Shown here in pieces: positions 1 to 19,973 of a stretch of 20,000 nt of DNA. The position numbers and the translations under genes are program-made. Source of the stretch: Reclinomonas americana ATCC 50394 (taxonomy: Eukaryota); NCBI GenBank assembly GCA_048213135.1, contig PS015421.1:57669-77668 (forward strand), written 5' to 3'. Every line of letters starts with the position of its first letter. Position 1 is the stretch's first letter. Below the pieces are notes generated by a model that saw nothing but the letters and a program-made list of their open reading frames with translations, was not told the origin of the DNA and did not search any database.

Positions 1-131
1 CTCCCTCTTCCCTTCTCTTCTTGTCTCCTCCTTCTCCCTTGTCTCCTCCTTCTCCCCTCCTCTCCCCCCTTTCTCTCCTTCGCCCTCCCCCTTTCCCTTC
101 TCCCCCCTCTGACGCCCTCTCCTTTTCCCAG
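1..131 (+). repeat. Intronic CT-rich polypyrimidine low-complexity tract ending in the CAG acceptor
   Basis: Almost entirely C/T; CTGAC branch-like motif at ~108 and cccAG at 127-131. Confidence 0.85.
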
Positions 132-3000
132 CGACACCGAGTATCGCAAGATCATTGCGGAGAAGGACCAGATGGTGTCGGCGTTGCACCAGTCGGTGGT
201 CGACTTGACGTCGGTGTTGCAGGATAAGGAGAGCACGATTGCGGAGCTGAAGAGCGGCTATCGCTCCATGCAGGACCTCATGTCACGACTCATGGTCTCT
301 TGTCATCGTCATACCCTCTCCTCCTGTGCTGTCGCTCACTCCTCTCTCTCTTTGTGTTGTGCCAGACCGAGTCACAATCACAGGCACTGGCTGTGGCGCA
401 TCTGCAGGCCGCCGTGCACGGATCGGCAGTGGCGACAGCAGCGTCGGCGTCTGCGGCACCGGCATCACCACGCAAGCAGCAATCGCCGGCTCGATCGCAG
501 AGTTTTGTAAATGTGCGCTCGTTGACGCCGGCGGCCGCGGCCGCGGCGACGCCACCACCGACAGGAAGCCTGTCTCCACGGTTGCGTTCGTCGAGCCGTG
601 GTGGTGCGGACACGCCAGAGTCGCCGCGGGTCGGCAGCTTGCGGGATCTGTCGGCCGCCGGTATGGCACCGGCGGCGGCGGCGGCACCGACAGCGCTCTC
701 GCCCGTCTCGGGAGCCATTGCGATTGCGCCTGCGGCGAATCGGCGCAGCAGCTTGGCCGAGGTGGCACCGCGCACGGCGTCTCCGAAAAAGGATCACGCC
801 CGCGCCGAGGTATAGAGTGTGCTGTGTGTAGACTCATTTGCAATCGCTGTTGCTGACCACTCATTGCATTCAACAGGCCCAATACCCACCTCGCAAAGCG
901 CCCACCGCCGAAGCTCTCGTGCCCGCTGCTCCCTCCCCGTCACCTGGCGTTGGTGCCGAGGCCGCCACAGTGTCGTCGTTGCCGAGTCCGCGCCGACGTG
1001 GCAGTGGCGTTGCGGTGGCTGTTTCACCGACTGCGGCCGCCGCACTCAGTGCCTCGCAGTCGGCACCGCCGTCCATGGCTCTGGGTGCAGTTGTTGCGGC
1101 TGCCCCCGCAAGTGCCGCGCCGGTGCCACATCCAATCGTACCGACTCTGTCGCTGGCGTCGGCCGGTCTGTCGAGCCCCGTGAGCAACGCCAAGCATTCG
1201 CCTCGCATGTCACCACGCAGCATCTCGTCGGGCCGGCCACCAGTCGGTCTCACGGGCGGCAGTTCACCCCGCCACTTTGCCACTCAGTCGTCGTCGGTGG
1301 CGGTGGCGGTGGCAGTGGCGCCCGGCTCACCCGCTCCCGAGGTGACGGAGACCGTGTCGGACAGCGAGGCCCCGTTGAGTGCTGGCCGCCGACCACCACT
1401 CGGCACCTCGGCCGACCGTCCACGCACACCACCTGCACAGCCGTCTGCGTCGCCCACGGTTTCCCCATTACGGCCGCGCACCGGCACTCCCATGCGTTCC
1501 AATCCCGAAACTCGTCGCAATATCATTAATCAGCTACACTCCAAAATCCCCCGCAAGACCGGCAGTCCGGTGCCGCCTGCAAGTGGCGACAGCGGCAGTG
1601 GCCTGACCAGTGTTCACACCGCCCCTCCAGGCCTGCTGCTGGCACAAATAAGAGAGGCGCAGGCGCAGGATGAGTCGCTGGCGGCGTCACCAGGTGAGCG
1701 GGTACTCTCGAAAGGTCCCACATATCCAGTTGTGTGGTCTCACGCGCCTTTCTTTTCCCCCGCGACAGACTTGCTACGTGTGAGTCGAATAAGTGGTGGA
1801 GGTGGTGCTGATGACGATGCGTCGGCGGGTGGCTCCGATCGGAGAGCATCGCTCAATTCGTCGTTTGAGAGCTCACTGGCAGACGATGGGCGGTCCTCGG
1901 CGCTCATGTCACTGCACTCTCCTCGGAGGAATTCAGCGCGCGACATTGTGGCCAGCTCCATGGAGGAGCGGCGCGATCCGTCGCCTGAACTCGCCATTCC
2001 GCAAGTGTCGAGCCTGTTGCCACCGTCGGCCGAGCTGCAGCGTCGCTTGTCACATCAGAAATCGTTGCGTGCTGTGCGCACTTGTTGTGTTGTCGCTCAC
2101 ATGTCTCCTCACTTGTGACACACCAGACCAACGAGCGCCGACTATACGGTTTTGTGCCCGACGTGTGGCCGCAAGGTTCCACTCGAGCGTTTTGAGAAGC
2201 ACGAGCAAATGTGCCAGAAGAACGATTCAGCGGTGCGTGTGTGCTATTGGGGTGATGCGCAATAAGTGGTAATGGCGTCATCCTCAATCATCGTGCAGAA
2301 ACGTGCCGTGTACGGCTCGGTAAGTTCGATTCCTAGTCCGGGCTCGGCCACCGGACCCGCCACCCCGCAGTCCAGCAGTGCGGCGAGCAGCGCCAGCAGT
2401 TCATCGTCAACAACACCAAGTGGCAATCCACCTGGGCCCACCTCCGCGTCCAGTCAGCCAGCCACATTACCGCGGCCCAAGGCGCACAGCAATGGTCGAA
2501 CGGCGTCTGTGGGTGGCGCGGCTGCTACGGGCGACGGTCGCTCACCGCGCGCCTCACCACCCAGTAGTCCACCCACCACAGCATCGAGGCAGGCAAGGCA
2601 GAGCCCGCCACCTGCCAACGGGCGTGCTTCGGCGCGACCATTGTCGTTTAGTGGCAGCTCGCTGGCGGCCAGCAAGAACATGCCTGCGGATTCTGTTGTG
2701 CGGAGCAGCGGGTCAACCTCACCCACTGGATTTACACGTGCTGCTGGTGCCTCTGCATCGGCACTGCCGATGCCGGCCTCCTCAGCTCGTTCACCAACAC
2801 GGCAACCCTCGTCGGCGACCGGCATTCCTTCACTGTTGCGCTTTGGGAGTCTGTGTGTTTGATCCTCTCTGCCTTGTTTTTGCTGACGAGGACGCCGACA
2901 TTGCAGCAGATCGGCCCAACAACGACTCGTCCGGTCATCGCGCCCCGTAAGTGCGTCGGGCAGCGGTGCGCCAGCCACCAACGGTAGCAGTAGCCGGTAG
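132..3000 (+). CDS. 5'-truncated protein with an N-terminal coiled coil, long Ser/Pro/Ala-rich disordered regions and one C2HC zinc finger
   Basis: GT-AG spliced exons 132-294, 366-809, 877-1693, 1769-2063, 2127-2232, 2299-2834, 2907-3000 (TAG). The first exon reads DTEYRKIIAEKDQMVSALHQSVVDLTSVLQDKESTIAELKSG (heptad-like). Exon 2127-2232 reads TVLCPTCGRKVPLERFEKHEQMC, matching the CxxC-x11-H-x3-C pattern of zf-C2HC_2. The last intron is less certain; unspliced, the stop is at 2862. Confidence 0.75.
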
Positions 3001-3122
3001 CAGTGGGTGGTGGTGGTGGAGGAGGCGGATGTACGAAAAATACCCAAATGAGAATCGCGCACGATAGGCTCCACGAATGCAAGCTGAATCCAGTCATTTA
3101 TGATAGATTTCGGTTCCAGCCG

Positions 3123-5218
3123 TCACACCTTGTAGTACGCTCCCATTCCCTGCGTATCGTCGTGATCTACCTTGGCTTGGGCCATGGACCGCTTACTGCC
3201 CGACCGTCGCCGACGCCGGCACCACCACTTATCCCAACATGATGCCGAGATCTGCTGCACGTCGCCGCTGTCGCCGCGGTGCAACAGGGAGGTGGCCGAG
3301 TGCGTGCGACCCGAGGCCGTGTCGTCAAACGGGTCGCCGCCCGACTCGCCGTCATCGTCTCGCGTGAAGCTGTGCGGGCAGATGCGACGGCCGATTCCAC
3401 GCACCAAATCGGTGAAGAGAGTGCGGCCGACTCGTCGCACACCGCGTCGGCTGCGATGCAAACCGCGACCCTCGCTCTTCAGCTGGTACACCAAGCGGTT
3501 GCAGTGTTGCGAGAGGCGGAAGCGCGGATACAGATCGCTCTGCATGCTCACGTAGACGTGCCGCTGAGCCTCGTCAAACGTGCGCGCATGTGTCCGTTTC
3601 TGCGCAAAGTCTTCCACAATGGCCGATCGCAGCACGTCTGCCCATGGGACGCCAGTGAGCAACTCGAGTCGCTGGTGACAGATGATGTGGTGTGCACACG
3701 CGTACCTGAAATGTTGATCTCTCGCATCGACCCGTCGGCAATGAACCTGTCGAAAATGCTCTGCGCCAGCCCCTCCCACGCCGGTGTGCCCTCTCTTCGG
3801 TGTAATTCGTCGACCTGCACATACACACACTCCCAGCATGAATCGACGAGCTGCAATGTGGGTGTGCGGCACCGCAGACGCAACAGCCAAGTAAAACATC
3901 AAGTTCTCCTCGGCATACGACTCCTCGAGGTAGGCCTCTGTGGACGCACACCCCGTGGTGAGAGAACACACATGAGAGAGAGAGAGAGAGAGTGAAAAGG
4001 AGAGAGAGAGCTAGAGGGAGAGAGACGAATGGAGAGAGAGAGAGGAGGGGTGCTCGTGTCGTGGAGGGAGAAAACACGCACCGAAATAAAAGAGACCGAG
4101 TGGGTCGCGAATGAGGTCCTTGACTTGCTTTGGTAATACCTGCACGGAGATGAGTGAGTGTGTTACTTGCAGGCGAGAAAGCCATGCAGCAGACCGTGGT
4201 CTCTGTGAGCCCAAACACCAGAGCAATTGCCAGACCTGCGACAATCGGAGGGTGAGGACAAGGACCTGAGCTTACCCTTCTTGTCTCTTTCTACTCCTCC
4301 TCCCTTCCATGTCCCCTCCTCTTTCTCTCCTTGTGCTATCCCCTCTTATCGTCCTTCTTCCGCTTTTCTCTCCCCTCTGTCACAATACGAAGGACATATA
4401 GCACTCACCGCTGAGGCCCTTCGAGACAACGGCAAACCACACCAACACGTTGGTGGCCGACGTGGCATCGACCGAGTCCATCAGGCGGTACGCCAGTGGG
4501 AACACCCAAAACGCCACAAAGAGCACAATGTACCTGTTCCACAGGTGAGCACCACGACACGGACAAACGTGACTGGCCACCACGCCGCCACGCAACACAA
4601 TGGTCTGCTTCTTGGCGCGGATGGTGGCCAGGTACACGGATGGCGGAATGGAGCCGAGATTGGGTGAGCCGCGGAGAATCATGGACATGCGCATGGCCGG
4701 CTGATCGCCGTTGCGTCGCGAGGCCACTGCAGCAGAATGATTGTGAAAATAAGCAACACAAGGCAATAAGGAATAGATACACTGCTGGAGCACGCAACGT
4801 GAGGTGCGGTTCGCGGCGCCATCGAGAATGTGCTGCTCAAAACCGTCAGAAGCAAGAACAAGGGAGATGAGTCGAAGAGGGCGGCTTTTGATACTCACCG
4901 AGCGGACCATCATCCACGACGCTTCGGTGGAGTTGCGCGGTTGTTCGGTTCGGGCTGCAGTGGTGGCGGGGGCTCGAGACGCCTCGCCTCGCGGCGTCGT
5001 GACCATCTCGGACATCTCCACTGAGCGGTCGACGGCCAAGCGTGGCGTTGCGACAGGTGTCGCCGGCGCCGTCGGCGGCAGCAGCACCACGGTTGGGGGC
5101 GCAAATGTCACGGTGGCCTCGCGCCTCGGCGCCGCCGGTGATGTGGGGATGGAGGAGCTGGGATCGGTGGGACGCGGTGACATCATGGGCGACTCTGCCA
5201 CGGCTCCAGTCGACAGTG
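3123..5218 (-). CDS. C-terminal half of a 7TM-RGS protein (end of ICL3, TM6, TM7, RGS domain, C-tail)
   Basis: Exons 5218-4899, 4832-4799, 4726-4597, 4533-4409, 4235-4195, 4139-4082, 3937-3885, 3814-3706, 3637-3123. TM6 is AKKQTIVYIVLFVAFWVFPLAYRL and TM7 is VLVWFAVVSKGLSGLAIALVFGLT. RGS motifs: LIRDPLGLFYFEAYLEESYAEENLMFYLAVDE, AQSIFDRFIADGSMREINIS, FDEAQRHVYVSMQSDLYPRF. Confidence 0.88.
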
Positions 5219-5224
5219 CTGCGG

Positions 5225-5416
5225 GTGAGAGGGGGAAGGAGAAAGAGAGGGGGAAGGAGAGGGAGAGGGAGAGGGAGAGGGAGAGAAGAAGGGGAGGGGG
5301 AGGGAGGGGGAGAGGGAGAGGGAGAGGGAGAGGGAGAGGGAGAGGGAGAGGGAGAGGAGAGGAGAGGAGAGGAGAGGAGATGAGAGGAGAGGAGAGGAGA
5401 GGAGATGAGAGGAGAG
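5225..5416. repeat. (GAGAGG)n/(GGAGA)n polypurine microsatellite abutting an assembly gap
   Basis: Seen directly; intronic polypyrimidine tract on the minus strand. Confidence 0.95.
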
Positions 5417-5436
5417 NNNNNNNNNNNNNNNNNNNN
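5417..5436. other. Assembly gap (20 N)
   Basis: N run. Confidence 1.
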
Positions 5437-7183
5437 ATGGTCGCGACTTGTGTTCCTCGCCTCCTTTGCATACACTCTGCAAGCGGTGTTTGCTGTGTGG
5501 CGAGGCGCAGGAGGGTAATGAGCACCTCCTCCTCTCTCATTTACTCACAAGCTCTCTCTCACACACATATGTCTGCGCAGGCAAAGTGGATGCGCGGAGG
5601 CTGGTGCGCTCGACCACTACTCGAGCTTGGCGGTCATCACGTGGCAGATTACGATGGTCATTGCGGTGTACATGAATGTCATTCGACAGGTCCGCTATCA
5701 CGACTCCTCCTTGTCTTCGGATCTGTGCTCATTGCGCCTTTCGTGTGCCTTGGTGTGTGTGTATGTGTGTGTGTGTGTGTGTGTGTGTTTGTAGGATAAG
5801 CGCGTGTCGTCGTTCCGCTGGCACATGTACTTCACGGTGCTGTGCTATGGCCTCCCGCTGGTGGTGGTCGTGGTGCTGTACATTGTGCAGCGGACGACTG
5901 GAATCCTTGTGTATGGCTCGCCGGCCTCGGTCGATGACTGGTGTGTGTGTGTGCCATCTGTTGCTGATCATGCGTGTCTATGCGCTCTCTCACGTGTGAC
6001 ATGACGTAGGTGTTCCATTGGCAACGACAGCGCTGTGTTGCACATTTTCGGCGTGCTTATCTACACTGGCGTTGGCGAGGTCTTTACGCATTCCTCCGCC
6101 ATGCGTTTGTGGATGCTTGTCTATCTCACGGTGCGCTCTTCTTTGCGCACGCAGGTTGTCTACGTTGTCGTGTGGATTGCTCTGGCTCGCTCGGCGTCAC
6201 GCGCCAAGTCCATGATTATGAAGGTGAGTGAGTGAGAGAGAGAGAGAGAAAGAGAGTGTGTGTGTGTGTGTGTGAAGACGTGCCCATCAGCCTTCTTCTC
6301 ACCGCACCAACTCACCCACGCTGACAACACGCAGTTTGTGACCCGTAATCGCGAGTCCATGGACGCCATTGAAACTCGCAGCGATCTCGAAATGCTCCGA
6401 GTACGTCGCTCCTCCTCCCTCTCTCTCTCTCTCCTCCCCCTTACTCTCATCATCCCTCTCCACCGCAGAACGACGACACGGGAAGTCTCTTTAGCGGCGC
6501 GCAAGATGGCGACGAGGACGAGGAGGAGGGGGGCGGGGAGGAGGACGTGGGTGCAGGGAAAGGTGCACCGTCCGCTGCCGGCTACGTCGGGGCACCGCGC
6601 GGAGGCTCCATTGCGTCGGGTGCCTTGCCCATGACACCTGTGGCGGCGGGTTTCGGCTTGGCCACCTCCGACGTCCCTCGAGATTTCCTCACCGTGCCCG
6701 GCAATCGCCTGAGCTCGACACCGATTGCGATCCCACAGACGGCGCCCGGTGGACGGGCCAATTCGTTTGATCACGCACTCGCTGCGGACTCTGCGTCGGT
6801 CAACAGCCACGCACTCCAGATGCCGGCGGCGTCACTCCCACACGATGCACCCGTGCGCCCCATGTCGACCCGCCGTATTCTACGATCGCCGGAGCAAATC
6901 ATGCAAGAGAAACGCGCCTCGCATCGACGCAGCCGTGCCGTTCGCATCGACGAGCGGCGCATGACGTTGCGACAGGAGACAGTGGAGTTTCTGCGTGCCC
7001 TCCAGCCGCAAGATGACACGCTGTTCGAGGACATGCTGTGGAGGCAGTTGCGATCGCTCGTGTTGAGGGATGCAGTGTGATCAGCCGCATTCGTCGCTCA
7101 TACTCTTGGTGCATGCAGATCTCGCTACTTTCGCCCGGCTGACACCATGCAAGCGCTCCTGGTTGCCGCACTGGAACCTGTTG
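5437..7183 (+). CDS. N-terminal/middle part of a cAMP-receptor-like GPCR (TM2-TM5 and start of a long ICL3); probably the same gene as 3123-5218
   Basis: Exons 5437-5514, 5581-5689, 5795-5940, 6010-6079, 6155-6223, 6335-6400, 6469-7046, 7119-7183. Translation: WSRLVFLASFAYTLQAVFAVW..GCAEAGALDHYSSLAVITWQITMVIAVYMNV..MYFTVLCYGLPLVVVVVLYIV..VYG..DWCSIG..LHIFGVLIYTGVGEVVYVVVWIAL. The TM3 Cys, the TM4 GLP and the ECL2 WC are typical of CAR/secretin-like receptors. Confidence 0.82.
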
Positions 7184-7287
7184 GTGCGTCCATGTCTAGT
7201 GTCCAATCCTGTCGATCATGCCCTCACGCCCCCCTCTCGTATCTTTTTCCTCTCCTCTCCCTCTCTTCCTCCTTTCACCCTCTCGTT

Positions 7288-7431
7288 TCTCCTCTCGTCT
7301 CCTCTCCTCTCGTCTCCTCTCCTCTCCTCTCCTCTCCTCTCCTCTCCTCTCCTCTCGTCTCGTCTCGTCTCCTCTCCTCTCCTCTCCTCTCCTCTCCTCT
7401 CCTCTCCTCTCCTCTCCTCTCCTCTCCTCTC
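7288..7431. repeat. (CCTCT)n pentanucleotide microsatellite abutting an assembly gap
   Basis: Seen directly; reverse complement of the repeat unit at ~5350-5416. Confidence 0.95.
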
Positions 7432-7740
7432 NNNNNNNNNNNNNNNNNNNNNNNNNNNNNNNNNNNNNNNNNNNNNNNNNNNNNNNNNNNNNNNNNNNNN
7501 NNNNNNNNNNNNNNNNNNNNNNNNNNNNNNNNNNNNNNNNNNNNNNNNNNNNNNNNNNNNNNNNNNNNNNNNNNNNNNNNNNNNNNNNNNNNNNNNNNNN
7601 NNNNNNNNNNNNNNNNNNNNNNNNNNNNNNNNNNNNNNNNNNNNNNNNNNNNNNNNNNNNNNNNNNNNNNNNNNNNNNNNNNNNNNNNNNNNNNNNNNNN
7701 NNNNNNNNNNNNNNNNNNNNNNNNNNNNNNNNNNNNNNNN
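7432..7740. other. Assembly gap (309 N)
   Basis: N run. Confidence 1.
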
Positions 7741-7810
7741 TGCACACACAGACGCACTTTCTCTCTCTCCTGTCACTCTTTGTGAATTTTTGTCAGTCTC
7801 ACTCTTACAA

Positions 7811-8028
7811 ATGCCGAGAGGAGCACTTGTTGTTGTGTTGCTCGTTCTTGTGGTTGTGCAGTGTGTGTGTGCGCGGTCGTTGTTGCGCGGTGGTGTGGAG
7901 GAGCAGGAGGGTGAGTGCACACGTGAAGGAGAGTGAGAGAGAAAGTCCGAACATGTGAAGGAGAGGGAGGGAGAAGAGAGAGAGAGAGAGAGAGCGACTC
8001 GCAGGAGAAATAGGTGATACTTAACCTT

Positions 8029-8069
<41 letters not shown>

Positions 8070-8153
8070 CATACACATATACACTTGCACAGAGAGAGAG
8101 AAAGGAAGAGTCAAGACTACTCTCACTGTGAGAAAGCAGCTTGCAGGTCTATC

Positions 8154-8190
<37 letters not shown>

Positions 8191-11100
8191 GCACGCGCAC
8201 ACACACACAGAGAATCGGAGCAATCATGCATGCGTTCATCACGATCATTCTCAGTCTCTCCTCATTCTCTCCTTATACCTTGACTCTCACTCCCTCCTTC
8301 TCCCCTTAGCTCTCCCTTCTCTCTCTCGTTCACCTCTTCCGTGCTTCTCTCCCTCCCATTGCCTCTCCCTTCTCCCCGCTCCCTCCTTCCACCCTTTCCC
8401 CTCACCTGTCTCTCGTTCACCTCATCCTTGCTTCTCTCTCTCCCTCTCCCTCCATCGCTTCTCCCCTCACCTCCCTCCCCTTTCCCTTTCCCATTTAGCA
8501 TTCCTCGACGACCACTACCTGCACCACACTGAGGGCGCTGACGTGCGCGAGGCCAGTGTGTACGTGAGCGACAATGGACGCGGCTTTGTGGTCCGCGAGG
8601 GTCTCAATCAGAGCGCGCTGGCGTGGGGCTCGTTCCGCGACGAGATCCACAGCACTGGATGGGGCCGTCTGAGTGTCAGCACCAATGGAGACTTTTCGTG
8701 AGTCTCGTCGCGCACTCTCTCTCTCTCTTTGCCCTCTGGCCTGACGACTGCTTCTCCGTCGTGCTGCAGCAACGTGCAGCAAGCCGAGGGCGCCGGCTTC
8801 CTGGAGTCGTACTTCACGTCGCACCTCATGTACCTCATGCACCGCAACTACATGCGCGGTGCCTTCCCCAAGGGCATTCCCGACTACGTGCACAAGTTCC
8901 TGGAGAAGAACTTGGCGTGGTACGACTCGCAGGTCGCCGCCTCTCATTCACAAGCCGGTGAGCAAGCAGCTGTAGAGCGAGTGGCATCGTCCTTGCCCTT
9001 GTTTCATGATTTCTTTGCAGATGAGGCGGCGTTCTGGAAGGCTGCTGGCGTCGTGCGCGCGCAGATTCACGGTCTGGCGCTGGGCTACGCGGCCTATCAC
9101 GCTGCTGGACAGGTATCGTCTGCATGAATACGCATCGTGAGGTCATCATCTCTGCTGTTTGACACGAGGCTTCGCAGGCAATGACCGAGGCGGAGATCTA
9201 CGCCCTCTCGGCGCAATCCGACATTGAGGACATTGACAGCTACCTGGGTCCGCAGTCGGCTGGTCGCCGGCGGTCGCCCTTCCGCTCCAATGTTCCCGAG
9301 AACCTGCGCCTCACAGACTGCTCCGGCCTCGTGCGGGTACGCGGAGAGCAGGCGATCGGTGTACTTGTGTCCTTGCTCACTTTTTTTGTGCATCCACCCA
9401 GCTGCTGCCCGGCAACTCGAATGTGTTCATCGGGCACGCTACGTGGTGGTCGTATTACGGGATGCTTCGTATCTGGAAGTCGTACTCGTTTAACTTTGAC
9501 AAGCAACCGACGCGAGTGTTGCGTGCATTGCTCTGCCCCCTTTCGTGTGTGTGTGTGTGTGTGTGTATGTGTCTGCGGCATGTTGTTCATCGCTGCTTGT
9601 GTCACAGCGCATTCAGCTCGTACCCCGGATTTGTAATCTCCACGGACGACTTTTACACCACGGCCAAGTTGCGCAAACTCCTTGCCTCACNNNNNNNNNN
9701 NNNNNNNNNNNNNNNNNNNNNNNNNNNNNNNNNNNNNNNNNNNNNNNNNNNNNNNNNNNNNNNNNNNNNNNNNNNNNNNNNNNNNNNNNNNNNNNNNNNN
9801 NNNNNNNNNNNNNNNNNNNNNNNNNNNNNNNNNNNNNNNNNNNNNNNNNNNNNNNNNNNNNNNNNNNNNNNNNNNNNNNNNNNNNNNNNNNNNNNNNNNN
9901 NNNNNNNNNNNNNNNNNNNNNNNNNNNNNNNNNNNNNNNNNNNNNNNNNNNNNNNNNNNNNNNNNNNNNNNNNNNNNNNNNNNNNNNNNNNNNNNNNNNN
10001 NNNNNNNNNNNNNNNNNNNNNNNNNNNNNNNNNNNGCAAACAGACTGGTGCTGATCTTCACTGTGTCGTGCTATACAGCAAGCTCACCATCATCGAGACC
10101 ACCAATGACCTCTTCAACGACACGCTGATTCAGTACATTCAGCCGACCACCGTGCTCTGCTTTGCGCGCATGTACATTGCGAACCTGGTGGCCACGTTGC
10201 GTCCGTGGTGTCGTGTCGTGTGTCGTGTCGCACGCAGTTCTCGACAATTAACCGCTGGCTATCCTGCACGACAGCAATGGACAAGAGTGGGCACACTATT
10301 TTGGCATGCACAACTCGTTGCGTATCTTTCTTGGTCGTCCTCACACGCACCGGCAATACCTGACGCTGCCTTTCTTGACTATTTCATGTCGCTCCCTCTC
10401 CTTGCCTCTTTCCTCTCGTAGTGGAACCTACAACAACCAGGTGAGGTCGTTTTTCCTCGACAATCTCCCTGTTTTGCTATCGTCCTCTCTCACACACACA
10501 CGCACGCCTCGCTTCTGTTCTTCTCCGCAGTATATTGTGATGGATGGCAAGCGATTCCAGGCAGGCAGCCCACCCTCCAGTGGCTTCCTGTGGGTCCTCG
10601 AGCAGATTCCGGGCAAGGTGGTGCAGTTGCGTTGCAGGAGGAGGGGGCATGTCTGTATCTCCCTTGTTTTTGACTGCGTTCCTCTGACCGTCGCCCACTT
10701 TGCAGGCAAGATATGACGCCGTTCTTGGTGCAGCACGGCTACTTCCCCTCGTACAATGTTGCGGTCAGCGCAGAGATGCCCTTTTCGCGAGGTGATATTC
10801 TCAAACACACACACCACCCCCCCCCCCCCCTTCGTTCCTCTTTGTGCCTGCAGATCCCCTACTTCCAGGAGATTTACGATGACAGCGGGTGAGTCCATTG
10901 TTGGTGGAGAGCGCACGGATACAGAAGGAATCGTGCACAAAAGAGAAAGGAGAAATCAAATCACCACTTTCGTAGGTAGGTTACAAGTACTTTCTCCCTC
11001 CTTATGCCTCGTTCCTCGCCACCTTGGGTTAATGAGGGAAAGCGGGTAGAGCGACTACTTCATTCCTCGGGACTGCCTATTGGTGCCTCACTATCTCCGA

Positions 11101-12385
11101 TGCGCTGCTCGCTTCCCCCGCCGGTGTGTGTCTCTTCTCGCTGGATGCCCTTTCGGCCACTTCTATCCTTCTCCGGCTCTAATTCCGCACCACTCATGTC
11201 GCCACACACTCCCCCTCTCTGCCTCCTCTCTTTTCTCCCATGCTCCTCAATGCTCTTTTCGATGCCTGTTTGGCGAAAGCTGGCAACAGTAGTGGAGACT
11301 AGTTTACCAACAAACAGTCGCACTTCATGTCGGGCGTGCCCCGCCACTGCACGTACGAGCAGGAGCGTCGCGTGGAGAGTGCAGAAGTGGGAGGCGCACT
11401 CGCGCTACATGTGGTGACGCAGTAGAAGGAAGAGGAGATCATGCATCTCTTCATGAGAGAGAGAGAGACGGTTGTTCTCTTTGAGAAGGAGACTGTCTTG
11501 TGAGATAGAGTGATTCTCAGGTGAGAGATGTGACACGCATCTCTTTGTCAACAAGAGTGAATAGTGCTCTCAGAAAGAGACTCTTTTGCGCCAGTAGAAA
11601 AGTGAGATACCGGCAATGACCGGCAATGCCGCACTTTTTTTCTTTTCGTTGTTGTTTTCAGTCCCTCGTGGGAAGAATGGCGATCGAGTGGGTGATTGCC
11701 ATGGCTGACCACACTCTCGGTGTTGCTTGCGTGCAGGTACCCGGCCATGAAGGCCAAGTACGGCGACGAGTTTAGCTACGAGAAATGTCCGCGGGCACTT
11801 ATTTTTGCGCGCGACCACGCGGCCGTCGTCGACCGCCAGAGCTTCCGCGCCATCATGCGGTACAATGACTACACCAAGGTTTTGTGGAGGGGCACAGATG
11901 AAGGAGGGCCTCCAAGTGTTGTTGGTCCAAACTGAAAATAGTATTATCATCATTGTAGGATCCGCTGTCGGGCAACGATCCGCTGAATGCGGTGGCCTCG
12001 CGCGGTGACCTGATTGTGCGCTCCAAGGACGACAAGCCCGTGGCCTTTGGAGCGATTGACGCCAAGAGTTACGTTTCGCGTGGGAGGGTACGAGAGAAAC
12101 AGCAAAAGCCAGCCCGCAGAGATCGCCTTTCGGCAGTTTCAATTTGCTGTCGTTTGGTCGCTGGCTGCCACACTCACTGCCTGCACTCCTGCGTGTGTTG
12201 CGTTAGTTAACGACGCCGTAAGTTTGGCCTCGGGGCATCCGGTTGTGGACGTTATATCAGGGCCGACGCACGAGTCGCTGCCGGCATTTGCCTGGAAGGA
12301 ACGCGACGGCATTTTTATGGAGGTGCCGCATGAGGGGCAGCCGGAGGTGTTCAATTTTGACTGGGTGCAGGGTGTGATGGAGTGA
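7811..12385 (+). CDS. PLBD: Phospholipase B-like protein (PLBD1/PLBD2 family, Ntn hydrolase) with signal peptide
   Basis: 16 exons: 7811-7910, 8499-8697, 8770-8957, 9021-9112, 9178-9336, 9402-9517, 9608-9667, 10079-10195, 10275-10316, 10422-10440, 10531-10625, 10706-10757, 10854-10888, 11737-11878, 11959-12067, 12207-12385. Signal peptide MPRGALVVVLLVLVVVQCVCA. Family motifs: TGWGRL, AGFLES, DCSGLVR (nucleophile Cys), GHATW, FSSYPG..STDDFY, IETTN, NSGTYNNQY, EQIPG, SYNIPY, PRALIFARD, MRYNDY..DP, SRGDL, FGAIDAK, ISGPT, HEGQPEVFNF. Confidence 0.95.
7965..8497. repeat. Compound (GA)n/(CA)n/(CT)n microsatellites and polypyrimidine tract in PLBD intron 1
   Basis: Seen directly. Confidence 0.9.
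9691..10035. other. Assembly gap (345 N) inside a PLBD intron
   Basis: N run. Flanking exons join in frame as DDFYTTAN-KLTIIETTN, so no coding sequence appears to be missing. Confidence 0.95.
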
Positions 12386-14324
12386 GTGAAGGAGAAGGAG
12401 ACGAGGACGGCGATGCCCAAATGCGTAGCCGCGGGAATTGGTCGTCTTTCGCCAAGGTCCTCTGCAAACGTCAATATCAACGGCGGCGCCTGTATGCGCG
12501 CTGTGCACATATTCGAAACCGTTACCACACAGCAGCGCGAGAGAAGGGTGAGAAGCATCGCCTGCAGCGTCGATGTCCGTAGATGATGTTCGAACCGAAC
12601 AAGAGACGCACTCATTCTTCTTTGTTTCTAGCACCTCGCGCAAAGAAAAGATCCCTTCTCACCCCCCTCGGTGACGAGGCACGCACGACGCACACATGCG
12701 CCCACTGCTCAATCAAAACGCATCTGCGGTGCGTGTGAGAGAATTTCTCTTTTTTTCACTCCGCATCTCAACCAGTCATTGACAAATATGGGCAATGTGC
12801 ACGAATCACACACGCAACAGAGCGAAACACTATCCGCATATACGCTTGCCGCTATGCCTCCATGCTCCTCTCCGCATCTGCGCGCACGTGTGTGTCTTTG
12901 TGGTCGCAATTATTGTCCGAACATTCATTGAGGTAATTTATTTTCAAAGTGTGTCGGAGAGAGCAAGCAAACACCACTCGCTTCGCCGAGTGCCTTTTTG
13001 CGCAAAAACACAAACAAACAGAGGTGAGTGTGTGTTTGAAACGAAGAGGAGGCAGAGGCAGTGTGTGAGAGAGAGAGAGAGTGAGTGAGTGAGAGTGCAT
13101 GTAGATATAATCACCACATGCTGTTCTCGTGTTTGATTGCTGTGCGATATGTGCGATCGGTGTTGTGTGTGAGCGGCAAAGAGAGAGTTAATTACCAGAG
13201 CGCGCTCTCTCTCTCTCGCTCGCTCTTGTGCGGTGTGTGTGTGTGAGTGGGGGGTTGTGTGCATGCGCGCGTGTCAGGAAACAATGAGTGATTATCATCT
13301 CCGTGTCGCACAAGACGGTTTTTGTATCTCTCTCGTATCGTCCTTGCTATGTGTGTGTGTGTGTGAGAGTGTGTGTGCGTGTGTGTGTTGAAAGGGAGAA
13401 TGTAGGAGGTTACTTTTTTGTGCCCTCTCGAGAAACATCGGCGAAAACACGTACACGCGCAGAAACGACAGCGAATCCTGCATTTCAATCTTCTCTGCTC
13501 TCTCGTCGGCTCTCATGTGCGTGTGTGGCAGTGTGCACAGTGGTGTTAGAACATTCCGTCCGTTCCTCTCTACATGTTTGCATGTTTGTGTGGAAAGGGG
13601 AAGAGGCGCGTCGATTGCAAATTTGCCTTTTTTGGCAGCGCTGGTCTTTGAGTTGAAAGTTGAAATCTGTGTTTTGATTTTGTTTTTTCTTCAGCACACA
13701 CACGCGCACACACATCTATACACTTTCGCCTGTTTGCACGTTTCATTGCATTCTCGCGCGCTGCTGCCAGTGATTGCCAGCGCCCTTTTCGTTGATTATT
13801 TATTAGGACATACCGTTGAGGCTTGAGGGGCGCTGGTGCTTGCAATTGTCTTTGTAGTAGTCGTGCTGGGTGTGTGTGTGTGTATGTGTGAGTGAGTGAG
13901 TGGAGGCAGTTAGTGACTGATTTACGTCGTGTCCACTAGAAACCGCTAGATTCTTTTTTTCCTCTGTCGGCGACGATGGTGGTGTGAAAGCGAAAACAGT
14001 TGTAAATACACAATGAGGCGTCGCACTTGGCACATATGTGTGCACGAGCTTAATCGTTTGTGTGGAGGGGGAGGTATGGAGAGCGCAGAGTGTAAGCAGC
14101 AGCAGCGCGGAGTCGCCTGCAGCCCGTTGGGGACACGCCTCATTGGCATTTGTTCGCTCCTTTTTCTCTCTTTCCTTTTTTCTTTTCTTTCCTTCTGCGT
14201 GAGAGCACGCAGTGCCTGACAGAAAGAGTTGCCGCGACATGCATGCAATGTACAGTGTGTGTATGCATGACTGACACTCTCTCTATGCGCGCTGTGTGCA
14301 GTCCTTCTGGCCTGCAACACACAC

Positions 14325-16152
14325 ATGCAACACGTGGCGATGATGCCCCAACACCGCCACCTGTCTTCGTCGTCGACCACTTCGCTGACGTCGGTGGTCG
14401 TCTCCTCGCCTGTCTCCGCCTCCACCACTCCCACTCCACCTGCAACTGCGCCAGCGGCCGCCGGCAGTGGTGCAGAAGACGGCGCATCACCCTCATTGAC
14501 ATTTGTGCAAGAAACAGGTCGCCATCGGCGGACCAAGATTCGTTTCACCCCCGCGGAGCTGCAATACCTGACCCATTTCTACGACAATGTTGCGTAACAC
14601 CACCACTACACATCCTGCATCTTGCCTGTTGCATCGCGGGGATGACACGTGCTGTGCGCAACGTCTCTTCTGCTGCTGCTGCTGCACTTCATCTTGTCTC
14701 GAGATTCTCACAAATGCGAACACACCAGGTTTCACGCAAGCCAACTGTGCAGCAACTTGAGCAAGTGGCCAGTCGCCTTCCGCGCCAAATACCTGTACAC
14801 AACCTGCGCATCTACTTTCAGAACAAGCGGTAACTTTTTTTCGTGTCGCTGCTCTCCCCAGGACCTTGTTTCATACTAATTGAATATTCCCACACATCAG
14901 TGCGCAAGAGCAACGGATGTTGAGGCAATTGGCCGCCGAGACCGGCGGCAACTGTGTGGTTGCGAGCAGAAAGGCCGCAGCACCGTCCCGCTCCATGTCG
15001 CCGGCGTCGCCGAACGATGCAGCCGCCGACCACGACTGCTGCATTTCGTCGTCGCGGTCTTCGCCGGATTTGTTTCGCCTGGCTCCCACTGCAGCTGCAG
15101 CGGCGGCAGCAGCCGCGGCGGCCGCATTATTGTCACCGCCTCCACCACCACCGCCACCATCGTCGTCTACGAAAACGACCGTGAAGCAGCAGCAGCAACG
15201 ACAACCATTCCATCGGCTGCAGCAGTCGCCGCCGACTGCATCGCAGCCACCACTGGTGCTGAGTGGCGGCAAACTGAAACAGCAACAGCCGCAACGACAG
15301 CACCGGCCAGGCGATGTGGCTGCCGCCTCCGCTGCACCGAAGCGCGTAGACCCGAAACCCGTCGTCGATCTCTCCGACCTGGACGTGCTGGCCGGCGCCG
15401 CCATGTACATGTCCCCGAAACCGTCGCCGGCGATGACACCGACAGTGGCAGCGGTGACGAGGACAACGACACCACCAACAATAACGACGCCGACTGCGAC
15501 GCGCGCGCCAGTGCCCCTGCCTGTTCCCGCTCTCGCCCTCACCAAGCCAGCCCTCGCTGCCACCGCTGCCACTGCGGCGGCGCCAGTGGTCGACTCCATC
15601 GCCAAGACGTTGCTGGCGGCGACCAGCAAGCCGGCACCACCAGTAGCACTGACACGACGAGAGTCGCCGTTCTCGCTGCTCAACTTCCCACCAGTCGACG
15701 TGATGCCAGTTGTGCCAACCGCGCGTCACGTGTCGCTCCACGACGTAATCAACCCGCCATCGCCACTCCGACTGGCACCTCCTCCACCACTGTCGGCATC
15801 ATCGGCACCACCGCAGTCGGCAGCCGCGGCCCCTCGCGATCGGTTACCGCAAATTCGTGAGCGCGACGATCAGAGTCCGCCCACCAAGCGCCAAAAGACG
15901 GCGGCGAACCAGGTGCTGCGTGGTGGCATTGCGTGGATGCTGGACAATGACGATGAGGAGGAGAACAATGACGACAAGGGCGATGCCAGCGAGGAGTACG
16001 TGAGCGAGGGCAGCGACAGCCACAGTGCACCTGCACAGAGCGATCATCGATGTGCGCCTGTAAGAGCCTCGTGGTCCCCGCTCTCTCGAGCGCAGGCCGA
16101 GCGCGACCAGCTGCTGGTGCGCAAGCGGCTGCGCGATCAGATGGAAAGGTGA
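14325..16152 (+). CDS. Atypical homeodomain transcription factor with long Ala/Pro/Gln-rich C-terminal region
   Basis: Exons 14325-14588, 14729-14829, 14901-16152 give RRTKIRFTPAELQYLTHFYDNVSRKPTVQQLEQVASRLPRQIPVHNLRIYFQNKRAQEQR, with homeodomain residues F8, L13, L16, P26 and FQNKR. The start codon is uncertain (14325 or 14340, or an upstream exon). Confidence 0.85.
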
Positions 16153-16372
16153 CGAGCGCGTAGATCGATCGCCTCTTCCTCCCCCTAAACGGCTGCCCCT
16201 ACTTTCTTTGTCTCGCCACCATAACCTCAAAGTCTCCCCCAATCTCTGTATCTTACGATCTGTATACCACAATGTCTGTCGCTCGCTGTCTACCGCCAAT
16301 AATAAATCGCTGGGTGGCGATACTGTCTTGCCAAACTACGTCATGTGTGTGTACACAAAGTGTTGTACATTC

Positions 16373-17982
16373 TCACGACGACGACGACGACGACGCCCCT
16401 TCCTCGCTGCCACCGAAATTGAGAAGGCGAGGCTGGAAAATGCGCAGAAACTCTTCGGTGTTGACGCGCTGCCGACAACGAGTGAGCAACGCAGCGAGAG
16501 CCACTTGCCAATGCAGTGAAGGCACTCACCATCTTGAGATCGACCTCGCCGGCACCGAGGTAGAAGAACGGCAACGCGGCCACTGCCTCCGACAGGATGA
16601 CCGGAATGCGACTGCGCAAGCCGACAGGGCACACTGCGACAAGCAGCAATGATCAACACGAGCTCTGGGGAGGAAGAATACATGACTGCTCTGCAGCACA
16701 CCTGCGTTGCGAATGTATCCCGAAAGCGTGGCTGCAGTCTGTGCAAGTCGTGATGAGGAGACAAGTCGCGCGACGGTAAAAAAACAGCTGTCTCTTGCTC
16801 TTGTATTCTCTTCTGCTTGCTCTCTACTTTAATCTCCGTCGCTTTCTCAGTCTCACGCATCTCTCTTCCTTTCTTTCTCTTGTACTCGCTCTTGCTCTCA
16901 TTATCATGTACATCCCGTGCCTCTTGTGCATTGCTCTCGTTCTCTTCTGCTTGCTCTCTACTCTCATGTCCGTTGCTTTCTCACTCTCGCACATCTCTCT
17001 TCCTTTCTTCGTTCTCTTGTTCTCGCCCTCGCTCTCGTTTCTCTTGTGCATCGCCCTGTACTTTCTTGTCCATCGTTTTCTCACTCTCTCGCTCTCTCTC
17101 TCTCTCGCACATCTCTCTTCCCTTCCTCTTTCTCGCAGTCTCTCTCATCGTGCATCGCTGTCTCTTGCGCTGCCAACCTCCTCCGCCACCAGCCGGAAGG
17201 TGAAGCCACTCTTGCCGCGATTGTTGAGCTGCCCAAAGTGCCGCGCCATCCTATCCGTGTCCATCTGTCGAGCACAGTGAGCGCACAATGACCGTGCTGC
17301 GGGCGGAACAACAACAGCACACCTTGCCACTGTACTGCACCACAACCAAAATGAACGGCGGATCACGCTCCTCGTCGTCGGACTTGCGCAGCACATTGCC
17401 ACTGCTGTCGACCAATCGCGTGTTGTGCATCACCACCGACTTGCACAAATAGTGCACCGTGGGAGCGCCTGCGGGGCGATCGATCAGCGTAAGGAACAAG
17501 CACAGAAACTGACAGCGAAACGCACCGAGCAAACGAGCTCGTTCCTCCAATGGTCGATCGTAATAGTCGGCAGGCACACGATAGAACGCCAGACTACGCA
17601 CTCACGCCCGTGCATATGAGCACGCGCGATTAACAAGAAGACAGACTCTGTCGAGCATGATGCAACTGTCGACGCAATCCGCATGCCTCGCACGCAGCGA
17701 CCAGATCGCCTCCGCATCCATCGCGCACCGATCCGCGGACGACACTCAGTGACACAAACGAAGGCGCCACGTGTGCTCCCTCATCGTCTTCAGCATGCAC
17801 AACAACCTCTTTCTTCTCTTCCTCTTCCTCGTTGGTGTGCACAATGTCATCAGCAATCACGGAGGCCTGCAGTCGCCGAGCGCGCGCAAGTAACGCGTCC
17901 ACACTGTGTATGAGTGCTGAGTGAGACAAGGCGTGAGGCACCACGGAGCAGTGAGCAAAGACCGATGCTCCAAGTCGTGCAT
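16373..17982 (-). CDS. YbaK/prolyl-tRNA synthetase-associated (tRNA editing) domain protein, eukaryotic plant/protist type
   Basis: Exons 17982-17963, 17903-17667, 17593-17526, 17468-17323, 17264-17178, 16738-16702, 16633-16530, 16468-16373. Motifs: FYRVPADYYDRPLEERARLLGAPTVHYLCKSVVMHNT, FILVVVQY, FTFRLVAEETAATLSGYIRNAVCPVGL, IPVILSEAV, FFYLGAGEVDLKM. Confidence 0.88.
16790..17150. repeat. Degenerate ~120-135 bp tandem repeat (about 3 copies) in a YbaK intron
   Basis: CATCTCTCTTCC recurs at ~16858, ~16992 and ~17110; CTTCTGCTTGCTCTCTACT at ~16810 and ~16944; CTCTTGTGCAT at 16921 and 17041. Confidence 0.7.
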
Positions 17983-18018
17983 GTGAGAACGAATGTCCTT
18001 CTATGTCCTCCAACGAGA
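17983..18018. promoter_or_regulatory. Putative minimal bidirectional promoter between the YbaK and SDR start codons
   Basis: 36 bp between divergent ATGs; contains ATGTCCT twice (17993, 18003), 10 bp apart. Confidence 0.5.
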
Positions 18019-19034
18019 ATGGCTGCAGCTGCGGGTGCCAGTGCTGCTCTCGCACTCGATCAAGGCGTTGTGCTGGTCACTGGTGCAGCATCGGGCATTG
18101 GTCGCGCACTGGCCGCACATGCTGCCACTGGTCTGCTCTTGCCTCTCTCTCTCTTCCGCCCTCTCTCTCACTCACTGACTCCACAGTGGAGCACTGCAAG
18201 GCACTGGTGCTTGCCGATCGCGACAGCGAGGGAGTGGCCGCCGTGCAACGCGAGCTGAGTGAGAGCAGCACGACGATTGTCAGCAGTGTAGTGTGCGACC
18301 TGTGCGTGTCCGACGATGTGCGTCGCATGGCGGAGCACGTGCAGCACGTGTGCAGTGAGCACAGTGATGGAGCGCTGTCGGCCATGTTCCTCAATGCCGG
18401 CATTGCGGGTCGATCGGCCGGCACTGCGCCGACGTGGATGACCAGTGAGGAGGAGTGGGCGGGGGTGCTGGGCGTGAATCTGTTGGCAGCCACGCGTTGT
18501 GTGCGACTGCTGTTGCCGGCGATGCTGCAGGCGAAACGGCGAGCGCATGTGGTGTGCACGTGTTCGCATTCGTCCGTGTCGACTGGCTTGCCCCTGGCCG
18601 CGCCTTACTCGGCCTCCAAGCACGCCATTCTGTCGTTTGTGGAGTCGCTGTCGCGCGAGTTGGAGCTGACGGGCCATGGGGCGCTGGTGGGCGTGTCGGC
18701 GTTGATGCCCGACTGGGTGGCCAGCACGGCGCTGTTGCGCGATCAGCTGCAGAATCCGCGGTTTCCGCCCGACATGGCCGCCGCCATTCAGAGTGGCTCC
18801 ATTCCGGCTGCCGAGTGTGCCCGGCTCGCCTTTGAGGGCATGCACGAGCGACGCGTGTACATTTTCACGCAGCCGGCCACCACACGGCGCGAGTTGCGCG
18901 CGCGGGTCGATGCGCTGCTGCAAGCGCTCGACGAGGCCGCCAACAAGTCCGCGCCGACACCGCCAGACAAGCCCCGTGATCGAGGAGACGGTGGCGGCGA
19001 CGATCAAGGCCCCACCACAACAGTCGAGGAGTGA
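18019..19034 (+). CDS. Short-chain dehydrogenase/reductase (classical SDR)
   Basis: Exons 18019-18130 and 18187-19034. It has the Rossmann motif VLVTGAASGIG, the NAG motif (FLNAGI), WAGVLGVNL and the catalytic YSASK. Confidence 0.92.
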
Positions 19035-19098
19035 ACGCAAGGAGTTACTAAACAAAGTCACTTCTGTACTACTAAAACAATAGGAGTCTCTTTTTTTT

Positions 19099-19973
19099 CT
19101 ACTTGTCACGCCGACCGACTCGCCGGTACGACGGCCCTGCACGACCACTACGAGAGCCACCATCACCACCACCACCACCACCGGCAGTCATGTCAATCAC
19201 TGCCGTCGGCTCCTGCGGCCATTGCACCTCGGCAGTGGACAAAGACGCCTTTGCCTTCCCCTTTGCACCCTCGTCACCGTCGTCGTCGTCGTCATCGGAA
19301 AAGTCATTGGTTTCCAAGCGCGCCAGGTACGACTTGGGCGGCGCCACCAGCGTCGGCTGCAGCGACGTCGGGAAGCGTTCCTCGACTACGCGACACCAGT
19401 GAGTCACACACACACACGCACGCAGCAACACGGGGGGAGTGCGCACGAAACATGTCTCCGATCGCTTGGCAGCTGTCGCATCGACGCGATTGCAGCGAAT
19501 GATAAACAGCACCGTCTCCATGAGCAGACCGAGCACTGCACCAGCCAAGCCGACCATGGCCGACTGCGATGACTGAGTGTCACCAGTCGTCGCGCATGTA
19601 TGTAAAGGAATAACTCGTTACCTTGGTGCTATCGCCTCCAAAGATGCCGCTAAACGCCACCGAAAAGGCAATGTAGAGGCCGCCCATCATCACAATGGTG
19701 TTGAGGCCGACGCCCACCTGCTCTCGCGTCTGCACGTAGCCCTCGCGCTCGCGCTCCACCTTCTCCTCGTGCGTCGTCACATTGGAGACCAGTCGGTTGT
19801 ACTCTCGCTGCTCCACCAGTCGTCGCAGCTTGTCTGTGCGCTGGGCATAGTCTGGCGACTGTGCACGCGAGTGAGAGAGAGAGGAGAAGAGAGAGGAAAG
19901 AGAAGAGAGAGAGAGAGCGCGCAACTGGTGTGTACTGTGCGCGCACTGGGCGACGCACAAGCAGTGTTGTTCC
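19099..19973 (-). CDS. VMA12: VMA12/TMEM199-like ER V-ATPase assembly factor (5' part outside the window)
   Basis: Exons 19973-19926, 19858-19622, 19563-19452, 19385-19099. Translation GTTLLVRRP..SPDYAQRTDKLRRLVEQREYNRLVSNV..EQVGVGLNTIVMMGGLYIAF..MVGLAGAVLGLLMETVLFIIR shows the EY motif, two TM helices and the E-x-x-L-F-I-I-R pattern recognised from Vma12. Confidence 0.8.

Follow-up and report, generated by a model that had tools for sequence, protein, structure and literature searches.

Few RNA-RNA contacts in eukaryotes are as conserved as the pairing between U1 small nuclear RNA (snRNA) and the 5′ splice site, or donor, which is anchored mainly by a G at the fifth intron base (+5G) and another at the last base of the exon (−1G). 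U12-type introns are defined by an RTATCCTT donor and a TCCTTRAY branch site near the 3′ end. To our knowledge, non-canonical registers of U1 pairing are known only as rare human exceptions, and changed U1 guides only from a few amoebae. Here, we investigated the donors in a 20-kb stretch of Reclinomonas americana ATCC 50394 (contig PS015421.1, positions 57,669 to 77,668 of the forward strand; this whole stretch of 20,000 nucleotides is referred to as the window). Introns starting with GTTGCG in this window very probably constitute a second discrete donor class, H/GUUGCG(U), which follows exons ending in a base other than G (H; a slash marks the exon-intron boundary throughout), and are with the same high confidence genuine GT-AG introns of the major spliceosome.

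In humans, donors read by U1 in a shifted register have been experimentally established (Roca and Krainer 2009, summarised in Tan et al. 2016, PMC4856993); bulge-register donors go back to Roca et al. 2012 (cited in PMC4856993), registers bulged at +2/+3 have been validated in human cells, and all validated non-canonical registers together are estimated at 1.5% of human donors in that summary. The closest precedent for the present case is the co-evolved pairs of U1 and donor in Archamoebae. As described in excerpts of a preprint (Roy and Bowser, bioRxiv 10.1101/2022.06.08.495308), Entamoeba combines GUUUGUU donors with a U1 carrying AACAAAC, and Mastigamoeba balamuthi combines GUGCGC donors with a U1 carrying ACGUAC. 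The same excerpts report that Thecamonas and Mamiellales favour +4C with a standard U1, and that Physarum polycephalum is said to carry both standard and modified U1 variants. The class described here is like the archamoebal donors in starting with GUU, in its seven-letter intronic consensus with +7U and in showing little or no −1G preference; a changed U1 5′ end likewise has its precedent there, including a G that would face C+5. Unlike the window, with its two exclusive classes side by side and C at +5 of the GTTGCG class, the Archamoebae in those excerpts show one near-universal consensus (87.9–89.5% GUUUGU), read in the normal register and with +5G kept.

We rebuilt all gene models by hand from three-frame views, with junctions fixed by coordinates and independently of an initial annotation of the window; every junction given below is predicted from sequence, frame and homology within this one window. 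The eight rebuilt genes contained no in-frame stops and yielded 50 donors, namely those of 49 complete introns and donor 7184, for which the acceptor is missing owing to an N gap. A GT 5′ end and an AG 3′ end were observed in 49/49 complete introns. The initial annotation had likewise counted 50 introns, and its 14 GTTGCG donors and three one-letter variants were all recovered at the same coordinates and on the same strands. We refer to these 17 donors, i.e., the 14 exact GTTGCG donors and the variants GTTACG (12068, +), GTTGCA (17666, −) and GTTTCG (19451, −), as class II, and to the other 33 as ordinary donors.

GTTGCG was the commonest donor hexamer in the window (14 of 50, or 28%; class II with its variants, 17 of 50, or 34%), followed by GTGAGT (7) and GTGCGT (4), with each other hexamer present at most twice; the class had been called a major one on first inspection, and these counts agree. 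Exact GTTGCG donors were found in six of the eight genes; the initial count of six genes was right, whereas the total of seven was one too low. On both strands together, the hexamer occurred 32 times against an expectation of 17.37 ± 4.00, a number reached in none of 200 shuffles. These 32 copies comprised 14 donors, 8 sense-exon, 7 antisense-exon, 1 sense-intron, 1 antisense-intron and 1 intergenic copy; since the 18 non-donor copies correspond to chance expectation (17.4), the entire excess is due to donors. Furthermore, only 18 of 2444 non-donor GT dinucleotides were the start of a GTTGCG (0.74%), and at that rate 14 of 50 donors has a binomial p of 1e-18. When the context H/GTTGCGT was considered on the sense strand in exon context, it was a donor in 9/9 cases. 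The 17 class II donors are as follows (last three exon bases in lower case; PLB, phospholipase B; ORF, open reading frame; aa, amino acids; gap-free counts refer to the homologue alignment described below).

2064..2070, + strand: atc/GTTGCGT in the zinc finger gene, phase 2; 63-nt intron with in-frame stop, next exon matching zf-C2HC_2 (PF13913, E=4e-6)
2835..2841, + strand: act/GTTGCGC in the zinc finger gene, last intron, 72 nt, with in-frame stop; alternative, ORF end
3878..3884, − strand: gct/GTTGCGT in the RGS gene, phase 0; removal of the 70-nt intron needed for frame
4590..4596, − strand: tgt/GTTGCGT in the RGS gene; 63-nt stop-free intron, signals only
4792..4798, − strand: cac/GTTGCGT in the RGS gene; 72-nt stop-free intron, signals only
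7047..7053, + strand: gca/GTTGCGA in the multi-pass membrane protein gene; in-frame stop; alternative, ORF end at 7078
9518..9524, + strand: agt/GTTGCGT in the PLB-like gene; chosen by the donor-blind gene finder; adjoins a variable indel, gap-free in 0/21
9668..9674, + strand: caa/GTTGCGC in the PLB-like gene; N gap in the intron; gap-free in 20/21; protein junction DDFYTTA(N)/KLTIIETT
10196..10202, + strand: cac/GTTGCGT in the PLB-like gene; gap-free in 21/21; Pfam residue count exact
10317..10323, + strand: ctc/GTTGCGT in the PLB-like gene, before a 19-nt micro-exon; gap-free in 19/21; protein junction HNS/GTYNNQ
10626..10632, + strand: gca/GTTGCGT in the PLB-like gene; gap-free in 19/21
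10758..10764, + strand: aat/GTTGCGG in the PLB-like gene; gap-free in 20/21; protein junction PSYN/IPYF
12068..12074, + strand: variant aga/GTTACGT in the PLB-like gene; gap-free in 21/21
14589..14595, + strand: aat/GTTGCGT in the homeobox gene; in-frame TAA directly after the hexamer
17660..17666, − strand: variant aca/GTTGCAT in the gene of a 264-aa protein; in-frame stop and frameshift
19445..19451, − strand: variant cat/GTTTCGT in the Vma12-like gene; 66-nt stop-free intron, signals only
19919..19925, − strand: cca/GTTGCGC in the Vma12-like gene; removal of the 67-nt intron needed for frame; next exon matching Vma12

We graded the support for the 14 exact donors individually as solid (9), probable (2) or plausible (3). 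Five are fixed by homology (9668, 10196, 10317, 10626 and 10758), and for four others (2064, 3884, 14589 and 19925) a frameshift or an in-frame stop makes the intron necessary, a recognisable domain carrying on after it. At 3884, the junction joins FYLA to VDE within the RGS domain, and the exon after 14589 continues in another frame, matching positions 22–51 of the Homeodomain profile; for 2064, a GTCACA situated 15 nt further upstream is an alternative donor that would also keep the frame. Two donors head last introns (2835 and 7047), the alternative there being that the ORF stops inside the proposed intron, 10–12 codons past the donor. Retention of the intron broke the ORF in 10 of the 16 testable class II introns, and for 11 of the 14 exact donors no alternative GT/GC-AG pair of equal spliced length was present. 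A donor-blind gene finder, which required only GT at the donor and scored codon usage and acceptors, still selected 9518, 9668, 10626 and 12068; this dynamic programme merged neighbouring genes and, once acceptors and lengths were scored, left most short introns unspliced, and it serves as an unbiased spot check only.

The PLB-like gene, with its six GTTGCG donors and one GTTACG variant, provided the most stringent junction test. We aligned its product with 21 full-length homologues and scored each junction as gap-free when no gap fell within ±5 residues; five of the six GTTGCG junctions were gap-free in 19–21 of the 21 homologues. Eight of its exons matched PF04916 (Phospholip_B) singly and in collinear order, and the residue arithmetic against this profile, which is independent of the 21 homologues, was exact in two spans: 21 model residues for profile positions 273–293, crossing junctions 10196, 10317 and 10441, and 31 model residues for positions 324–354, crossing junctions 10626, 10758 and 10889. 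Each of these spans crosses two GTTGCG junctions. Junctions displaced by one base were also considered and rejected, as they break the frames and the homologue alignment. The spliced model could be aligned over its whole length with family members, and the best named full-length match was a PLB-like protein of the dictyostelid Cavenderia fasciculata (351 bits over residues 5–562, 34% identity). A metagenome contig (L001, 1913 bases), the single contig returned from one scan of metagenome contigs, carries at 13–1698 (+) a complete, uninterrupted PLB-like ORF of 561 aa with 39.8% identity to the gene, and is one of the homologues behind the gap-free counts; this ORF is a transcript or an intron-less gene and offers no orthologous introns for comparison. 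In the collections searched, no relative of the PLB exon exceeded 67% identity, or 64% in an exhaustive search, and no match to the whole model exceeded 60% identity over 62 aa.

Three local features of this gene were also recorded. The 19-nt micro-exon at 10422–10440 (+) encodes the conserved (S)GTYNNQ, is supported by the Pfam residue counts, and lies between a GTTGCG intron and a GTGAGG intron. At 10626–10636 (+), GTTGCGTTGCAGG contains two overlapping class II-like donors 5 nt apart, the second being GTTGCA; use of this second copy as the true donor was rejected because it would drop a conserved D. At 12197–12204 (+), GTTGCGTT lies inside the 12068 intron, 10 nt ahead of its acceptor.

The strongest feature of the class, absent from the initial annotation, is the mutual exclusion of GTTGCG and −1G. 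A G at −1 was observed in 0/17 class II donors and in 31/33 other donors (Fisher p=1.7e-11), and only five donors outside the exact class had a non-G at −1, three of which are the variants. The reported lack of +5G held without exception: +5 was C in 17/17 class II donors. A T at +7 was found in 12/17 class II and 9/14 exact donors, the latter being the same count as obtained initially. The other 33 donors were loose inside the intron (+3G in 17; +4 A, T or C in 13, 11 and 8; +5G in 24; +6T in 17), and exonic look-alikes of ordinary donors were unused when the base before them was not G; for example, a non-G precedes 6/6 exonic copies of GTGAGC. Phase 2 was found in 9/14 exact GTTGCG donors compared with 6/33 other donors, and since phase 2 puts the −1 base at the second codon position, this base cannot freely be G.

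The remaining intron signals were alike in both classes. A YTSAY/YTAAY motif 8–60 nt from the 3′ end was present in 15/16 class II and 25/29 other introns, with the branch-site-like motif at a median of 18 nt from the 3′ end in both; the pyrimidine fraction was 0.61 and 0.65, respectively, and CAG/TAG acceptors did not differ. The intron bodies were also no more alike within the class than elsewhere, with a median local alignment score of 14 for the 120 class II, 406 ordinary and 464 mixed pairs, and with the top score in a mixed pair.

We then calculated duplexes between the 5′ end of U1 and each donor (−3 to +9). For the canonical sequence given in PMC4856993 (AUACUUACCUG), the mean was −6.83 kcal/mol for the 33 ordinary donors and −1.13 kcal/mol for the 17 class II donors, and no register was stable for class II (shifted, +0.3 kcal/mol; bulged, +1.0 kcal/mol). 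When ACGUAC replaced ACUUAC in U1, the class II mean became −5.01 kcal/mol, with an optimal helix shifted by +1: G+1 pairs with C9, U+2 is mismatched, and U+3:A7, G+4.U6, C+5:G5, G+6:C4 and U+7:A3 follow (−4.5 to −5.3 kcal/mol in the shifted register). Read from +1, class II carries the modal ordinary letter at slots −1, +2, +3, +5 and +6; in other words, GUUGCGU from its first base and G/GUGCGU from its exonic G differ in the second letter only. The variant GTTACG is compatible with U at U1 position 6, and the +4 C or T of 19/33 ordinary donors is compatible with G at U1 position 5.

From these analyses, the best reading, which we hold tentatively, is that a U1 carrying a G opposite +5C reads the class in a +1-shifted register. 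A human-type shift or bulge on standard U1 is insufficient, and would not explain the invariant +5C, which it would leave mismatched; we infer a U1 with an ACGUAC- or ACGCAC-type 5′ end from the precedent of Mastigamoeba balamuthi. U1 would bind class II donors one nucleotide out of register, so that intron G+1 would fill the slot of the ordinary exonic −1G and pair with U1 C9, U+2 would be the sole mismatch, and U+3, G+4, C+5, G+6 and U+7 would occupy slots +2 to +6. Both classes would then offer one recognition heptamer, G-(G/U)-U-G-C-G-U, as G/GUGCGU in ordinary and /GUUGCGU in class II donors, and cleavage would be set later by U6 and Prp8, ahead of the only GU available. Since one central pair (C8) would be lost, all other positions would have to pair, which would make class II letter-perfect and leave ordinary donors loose. 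The class would be kept only where the exon cannot supply a G, and introns with −1G would drift into the loose class.

This proposal resembles the human shifted sites in a helix moved by one nucleotide, cleavage at GU, poor pairing in the canonical register and lack of +5G. It differs in that those sites are rare, whereas one exact GC-rich heptamer accounts here for 28% of donors (34% with variants); the helix here would be stable only with a changed U1, and the case is known from sequence alone. The initial annotation had read GTTGCGT as the ordinary GTGCGT with an additional T, and had proposed a +1-shifted register or a variant U1/U6 snRNA. The class does equal the ordinary optimum one position along, and the shift would be stable on an ACGUAC-type U1; neither shift nor bulge is stable on canonical U1, and the bulge is disfavoured by the missing −1G. 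A variant snRNA is almost as likely as the shift, and a non-canonical U1 would be required for both.

Several points weigh against the shifted register, or against the breadth of the class on which it is built. The shifted helix is unstable on canonical U1, and the model needs the U1 change just described; ordinary donors carry +4C in only 8/33 cases; and U6 ACAGA would probably pair poorly with +5C and +6G in the true register. A U1 of the ACGUAC type separates the shifted helix from the bulged one by just 0.7 kcal/mol (−4.5 against −3.8), so that the choice between them falls to the −1 statistics. A dedicated U1 binds GUUGCGU far more strongly (−10.6 to −11.2 kcal/mol) and explains the consensus at least equally well. 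A compensation between −1A and +7T was hinted at weakly (p=0.095). Three exact donors (4798, 4596 and 9518) have intron-like signals only, in introns that are stop-free and a multiple of three in length, and two further ones (2835 and 7047) are only last-intron cases; the eight sense-exon GTTGCG copies are unused as donors, indicating that the hexamer alone is insufficient; and the whole case is drawn from 20 kb.

Nearly as likely as the shift is an arrangement with two U1 snRNAs, in which a second U1-type RNA with the 5′ end ACGCAAC would recognise GUUGCGU without any change of register and take charge of the introns without −1G. When all 4096 hexamers were scanned at U1 positions 3–8, GCGCAA (−11.2 kcal/mol) and ACGCAA (−10.6 kcal/mol) were the best class II binders, compared with −1.1 kcal/mol for canonical U1, and a fully complementary guide would give seven fixed intron positions and no exonic consensus. 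The pattern is that of Entamoeba, where GUUUGUU donors and U1 AACAAAC go together with a low −1G of 18.6–30.7%, and Physarum, with its standard and modified variants, may combine two types of U1 in a single genome (both from the excerpts of bioRxiv 10.1101/2022.06.08.495308); unlike the arrangement considered here, the modified Physarum U1 fits GUAUGU in the normal register, and its details are unpublished according to that text. This arrangement would require five changes in the most conserved part of U1, compared with one for the shift; the variant GTTACG would mismatch such a guide at +4; and it would be a coincidence that class II looks like the ordinary optimum moved along by one base.

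In its full form, which we regard as fairly unlikely, it would amount to two parallel donor codes in the major spliceosome, each with its own U1: G/GUNNGY and H/GUUGCGU (5′-ACGCAAC). If this were true, GUUGCG introns would make up a third class of introns, set apart by the 5′ end alone and sharing U2 and the 3′ signals, with membership set by whether the coding sequence permits −1G. A single lineage-wide consensus of the Entamoeba type was rejected, as the class makes up 14–17 of the 50 donors and the rest are G/GTNNGY-like.

An improbable alternative is the bulged register, in which G+1 and U+2 pair with U1 C8 and A7, U+3 bulges, and GCGU is read as +3 to +6. GUUGCGU can indeed be written as GU-U-GCGU with one bulged U, like the human bulge-register sites, whose bulges at +2/+3 have been validated, and on the ACGUAC-type U1 this helix is nearly as stable as the shifted one. 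Unlike the shift, it is disfavoured by the absence of −1G: C9 would be free for pairing, and −1G should be favoured or tolerated, so that a bulge would profit from a base seen in none of the class; on canonical U1, it is unstable as well. For this reason, we favour the shift over the bulge.

Recognition without U1, by a diverged minor-spliceosome-like small nuclear ribonucleoprotein or by a sequence-specific protein reading UUGCGU, is very improbable. A long, rigid intronic 5′ motif without exonic consensus, in a minority of introns beside ordinary ones, is what U12-type introns show, and canonical U1 cannot pair with it. U12-type introns, however, have their own branch consensus, whereas the branch motif, its distance, the pyrimidines and the CAG acceptors of class II are those of ordinary introns, and the donor motif is unlike RTATCCTT. 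With GTTGCG at the donor, branch motifs of the ordinary CTSAC kind and no TCCTTRAY branch site, a U12-like class was rejected.

It is highly improbable that the class is a gene-modelling artefact or the product of chance, with true junctions elsewhere and GTTGCG simply a frequent word in GC-rich DNA. The three donors heading in-frame, stop-free introns, the two terminal ones and the eight unused exonic copies would fit such an explanation; the five junctions fixed by homologues and by exact Pfam residue counts, the binomial enrichment, the −1G exclusion and a number of non-donor copies equal to expectation contradict it. Mobile intron ('introner') copies bringing their own GTTGCG end, which an identical 6–7-nt start in many short introns would suit as a young family, were ruled out by the intron-body comparison, with class bodies no more alike than other pairs and no common 3′ end.

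The initial annotation knew of no organism in which such donors had been described as a dominant class; this stands after our searches, and the precedent of Entamoeba and Mastigamoeba had been overlooked. Full-text literature searches, with supplementary splice-site tables outside their scope, returned no description of GTTGCG/GUUGCG donors; among the papers listed, the matches were confined to unrelated primers, siRNAs and aptamers. Nor did we find a report of donors that fall into two mutually exclusive classes according to the last base of the exon. An earlier description in some genome paper is possible, if not probable. The novelty lies in a variation on non-canonical U1 registers and co-evolved U1 guides, both of which are known.

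Among the ordinary donors, a further odd group was observed, G/GTCT (295, 6080 and 18131 on the + strand; 4194 and 17962 on the − strand). It comprises GTCTCT once, GTCTTT twice and GTCTGC twice, all with −1G, and pairs very weakly with canonical U1 (−2.6 to −4.2 kcal/mol); donor 18131 is required for the TGxxxGxG motif and for the frame of the dehydrogenase gene. The textbook GTAAGT heads 0/50 introns, yet has three copies inside coding exons (2320, 2947 and 12218, +). The copy at 2320 is G/GTAAGT with an in-frame CAG 51 nt downstream, and an optional extra intron in the zinc finger gene at this position is conceivable. GUGCGC, the hexamer preferred in Mastigamoeba balamuthi, was found at 0/50 donors. 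Rfam at gathering thresholds returned 0 families over the whole window, and no snRNA gene lies in it.

The window has a GC content of about 0.55–0.65 outside three N gaps, and its genes are densely packed with many short introns. Mastigamoeba was considered for comparison on account of GC content and coding density, and a similar density of genes and introns is reported for Pelomyxa schiedti, with which no sequence link was found. The eight gene models are as follows.

132..2999, + strand: low-complexity protein with a C2HC zinc finger; 6 introns; 5′ end beyond the window
3123..5186, − strand: membrane-spanning protein with an RGS domain; 8 introns; RGS Pfam match on the last exon
5438..7183, + strand: multi-pass membrane protein; 8 donors; N gaps cut both ends
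7811..12385, + strand: PLB-like protein; 16 exons; 567 aa
14325..16152, + strand: homeobox protein; 2 introns; Pfam Homeodomain
16373..17982, − strand: 264-aa protein; 7 introns
18019..19034, + strand: short-chain dehydrogenase (SDR); 1 intron (donor 18131, GTCTGC); adh_short E=2e-22
19100..19973, − strand: Vma12-like membrane protein; 3 introns; 5′ end beyond the window

No Pfam match was obtained for the multi-pass membrane protein or the 264-aa protein when their exons were scanned singly; we take the former to be cAMP-receptor-like, by our own reading, and the latter presumably resembles YbaK. The 281-aa exon of the SDR gene had no match above 38% identity, that match spanning only 44% of the exon, and in the Atlas only generic SDR clusters were returned. 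The homeodomain has 63 residues by count and is interrupted by a GTTGCG intron; it is TALE-like, with three extra residues between helices 1 and 2, which we take to be the TALE-type extension by counting against the canonical numbering. Outside the homeodomain, the protein is of low complexity. The start codons of the 264-aa protein gene (17982, −) and the SDR gene (18019, +) are divergent with 36 bases between them, so that any shared promoter must be tiny or lie inside the genes.

Long microsatellites of the (GA)n/(CT)n, (CA)n and GAGAGG types occupy the long introns and spacers (5200–5416, 7240–7431, 7960–8490 and 16780–17140), and those beside the first two of the three N gaps probably explain these two assembly breaks. 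Between the PLB-like and homeobox genes, 12400–14300 (about 1.9 kb) contained no convincing reading frame and is rich in GT/GA repeats; the GC content at 13001–14000 was 0.49, lower than elsewhere.

A genome with a third of its introns on such donors would be a natural system for studying how the spliceosome selects its cleavage site where the position of the U1 helix does not match that of the GU. It would also help to show how splice signals are influenced by coding demands at exon ends, and whether one or two U1 species can serve one spliceosome. In practice, gene finders whose donor models were trained on ordinary sites will annotate such genomes wrongly.

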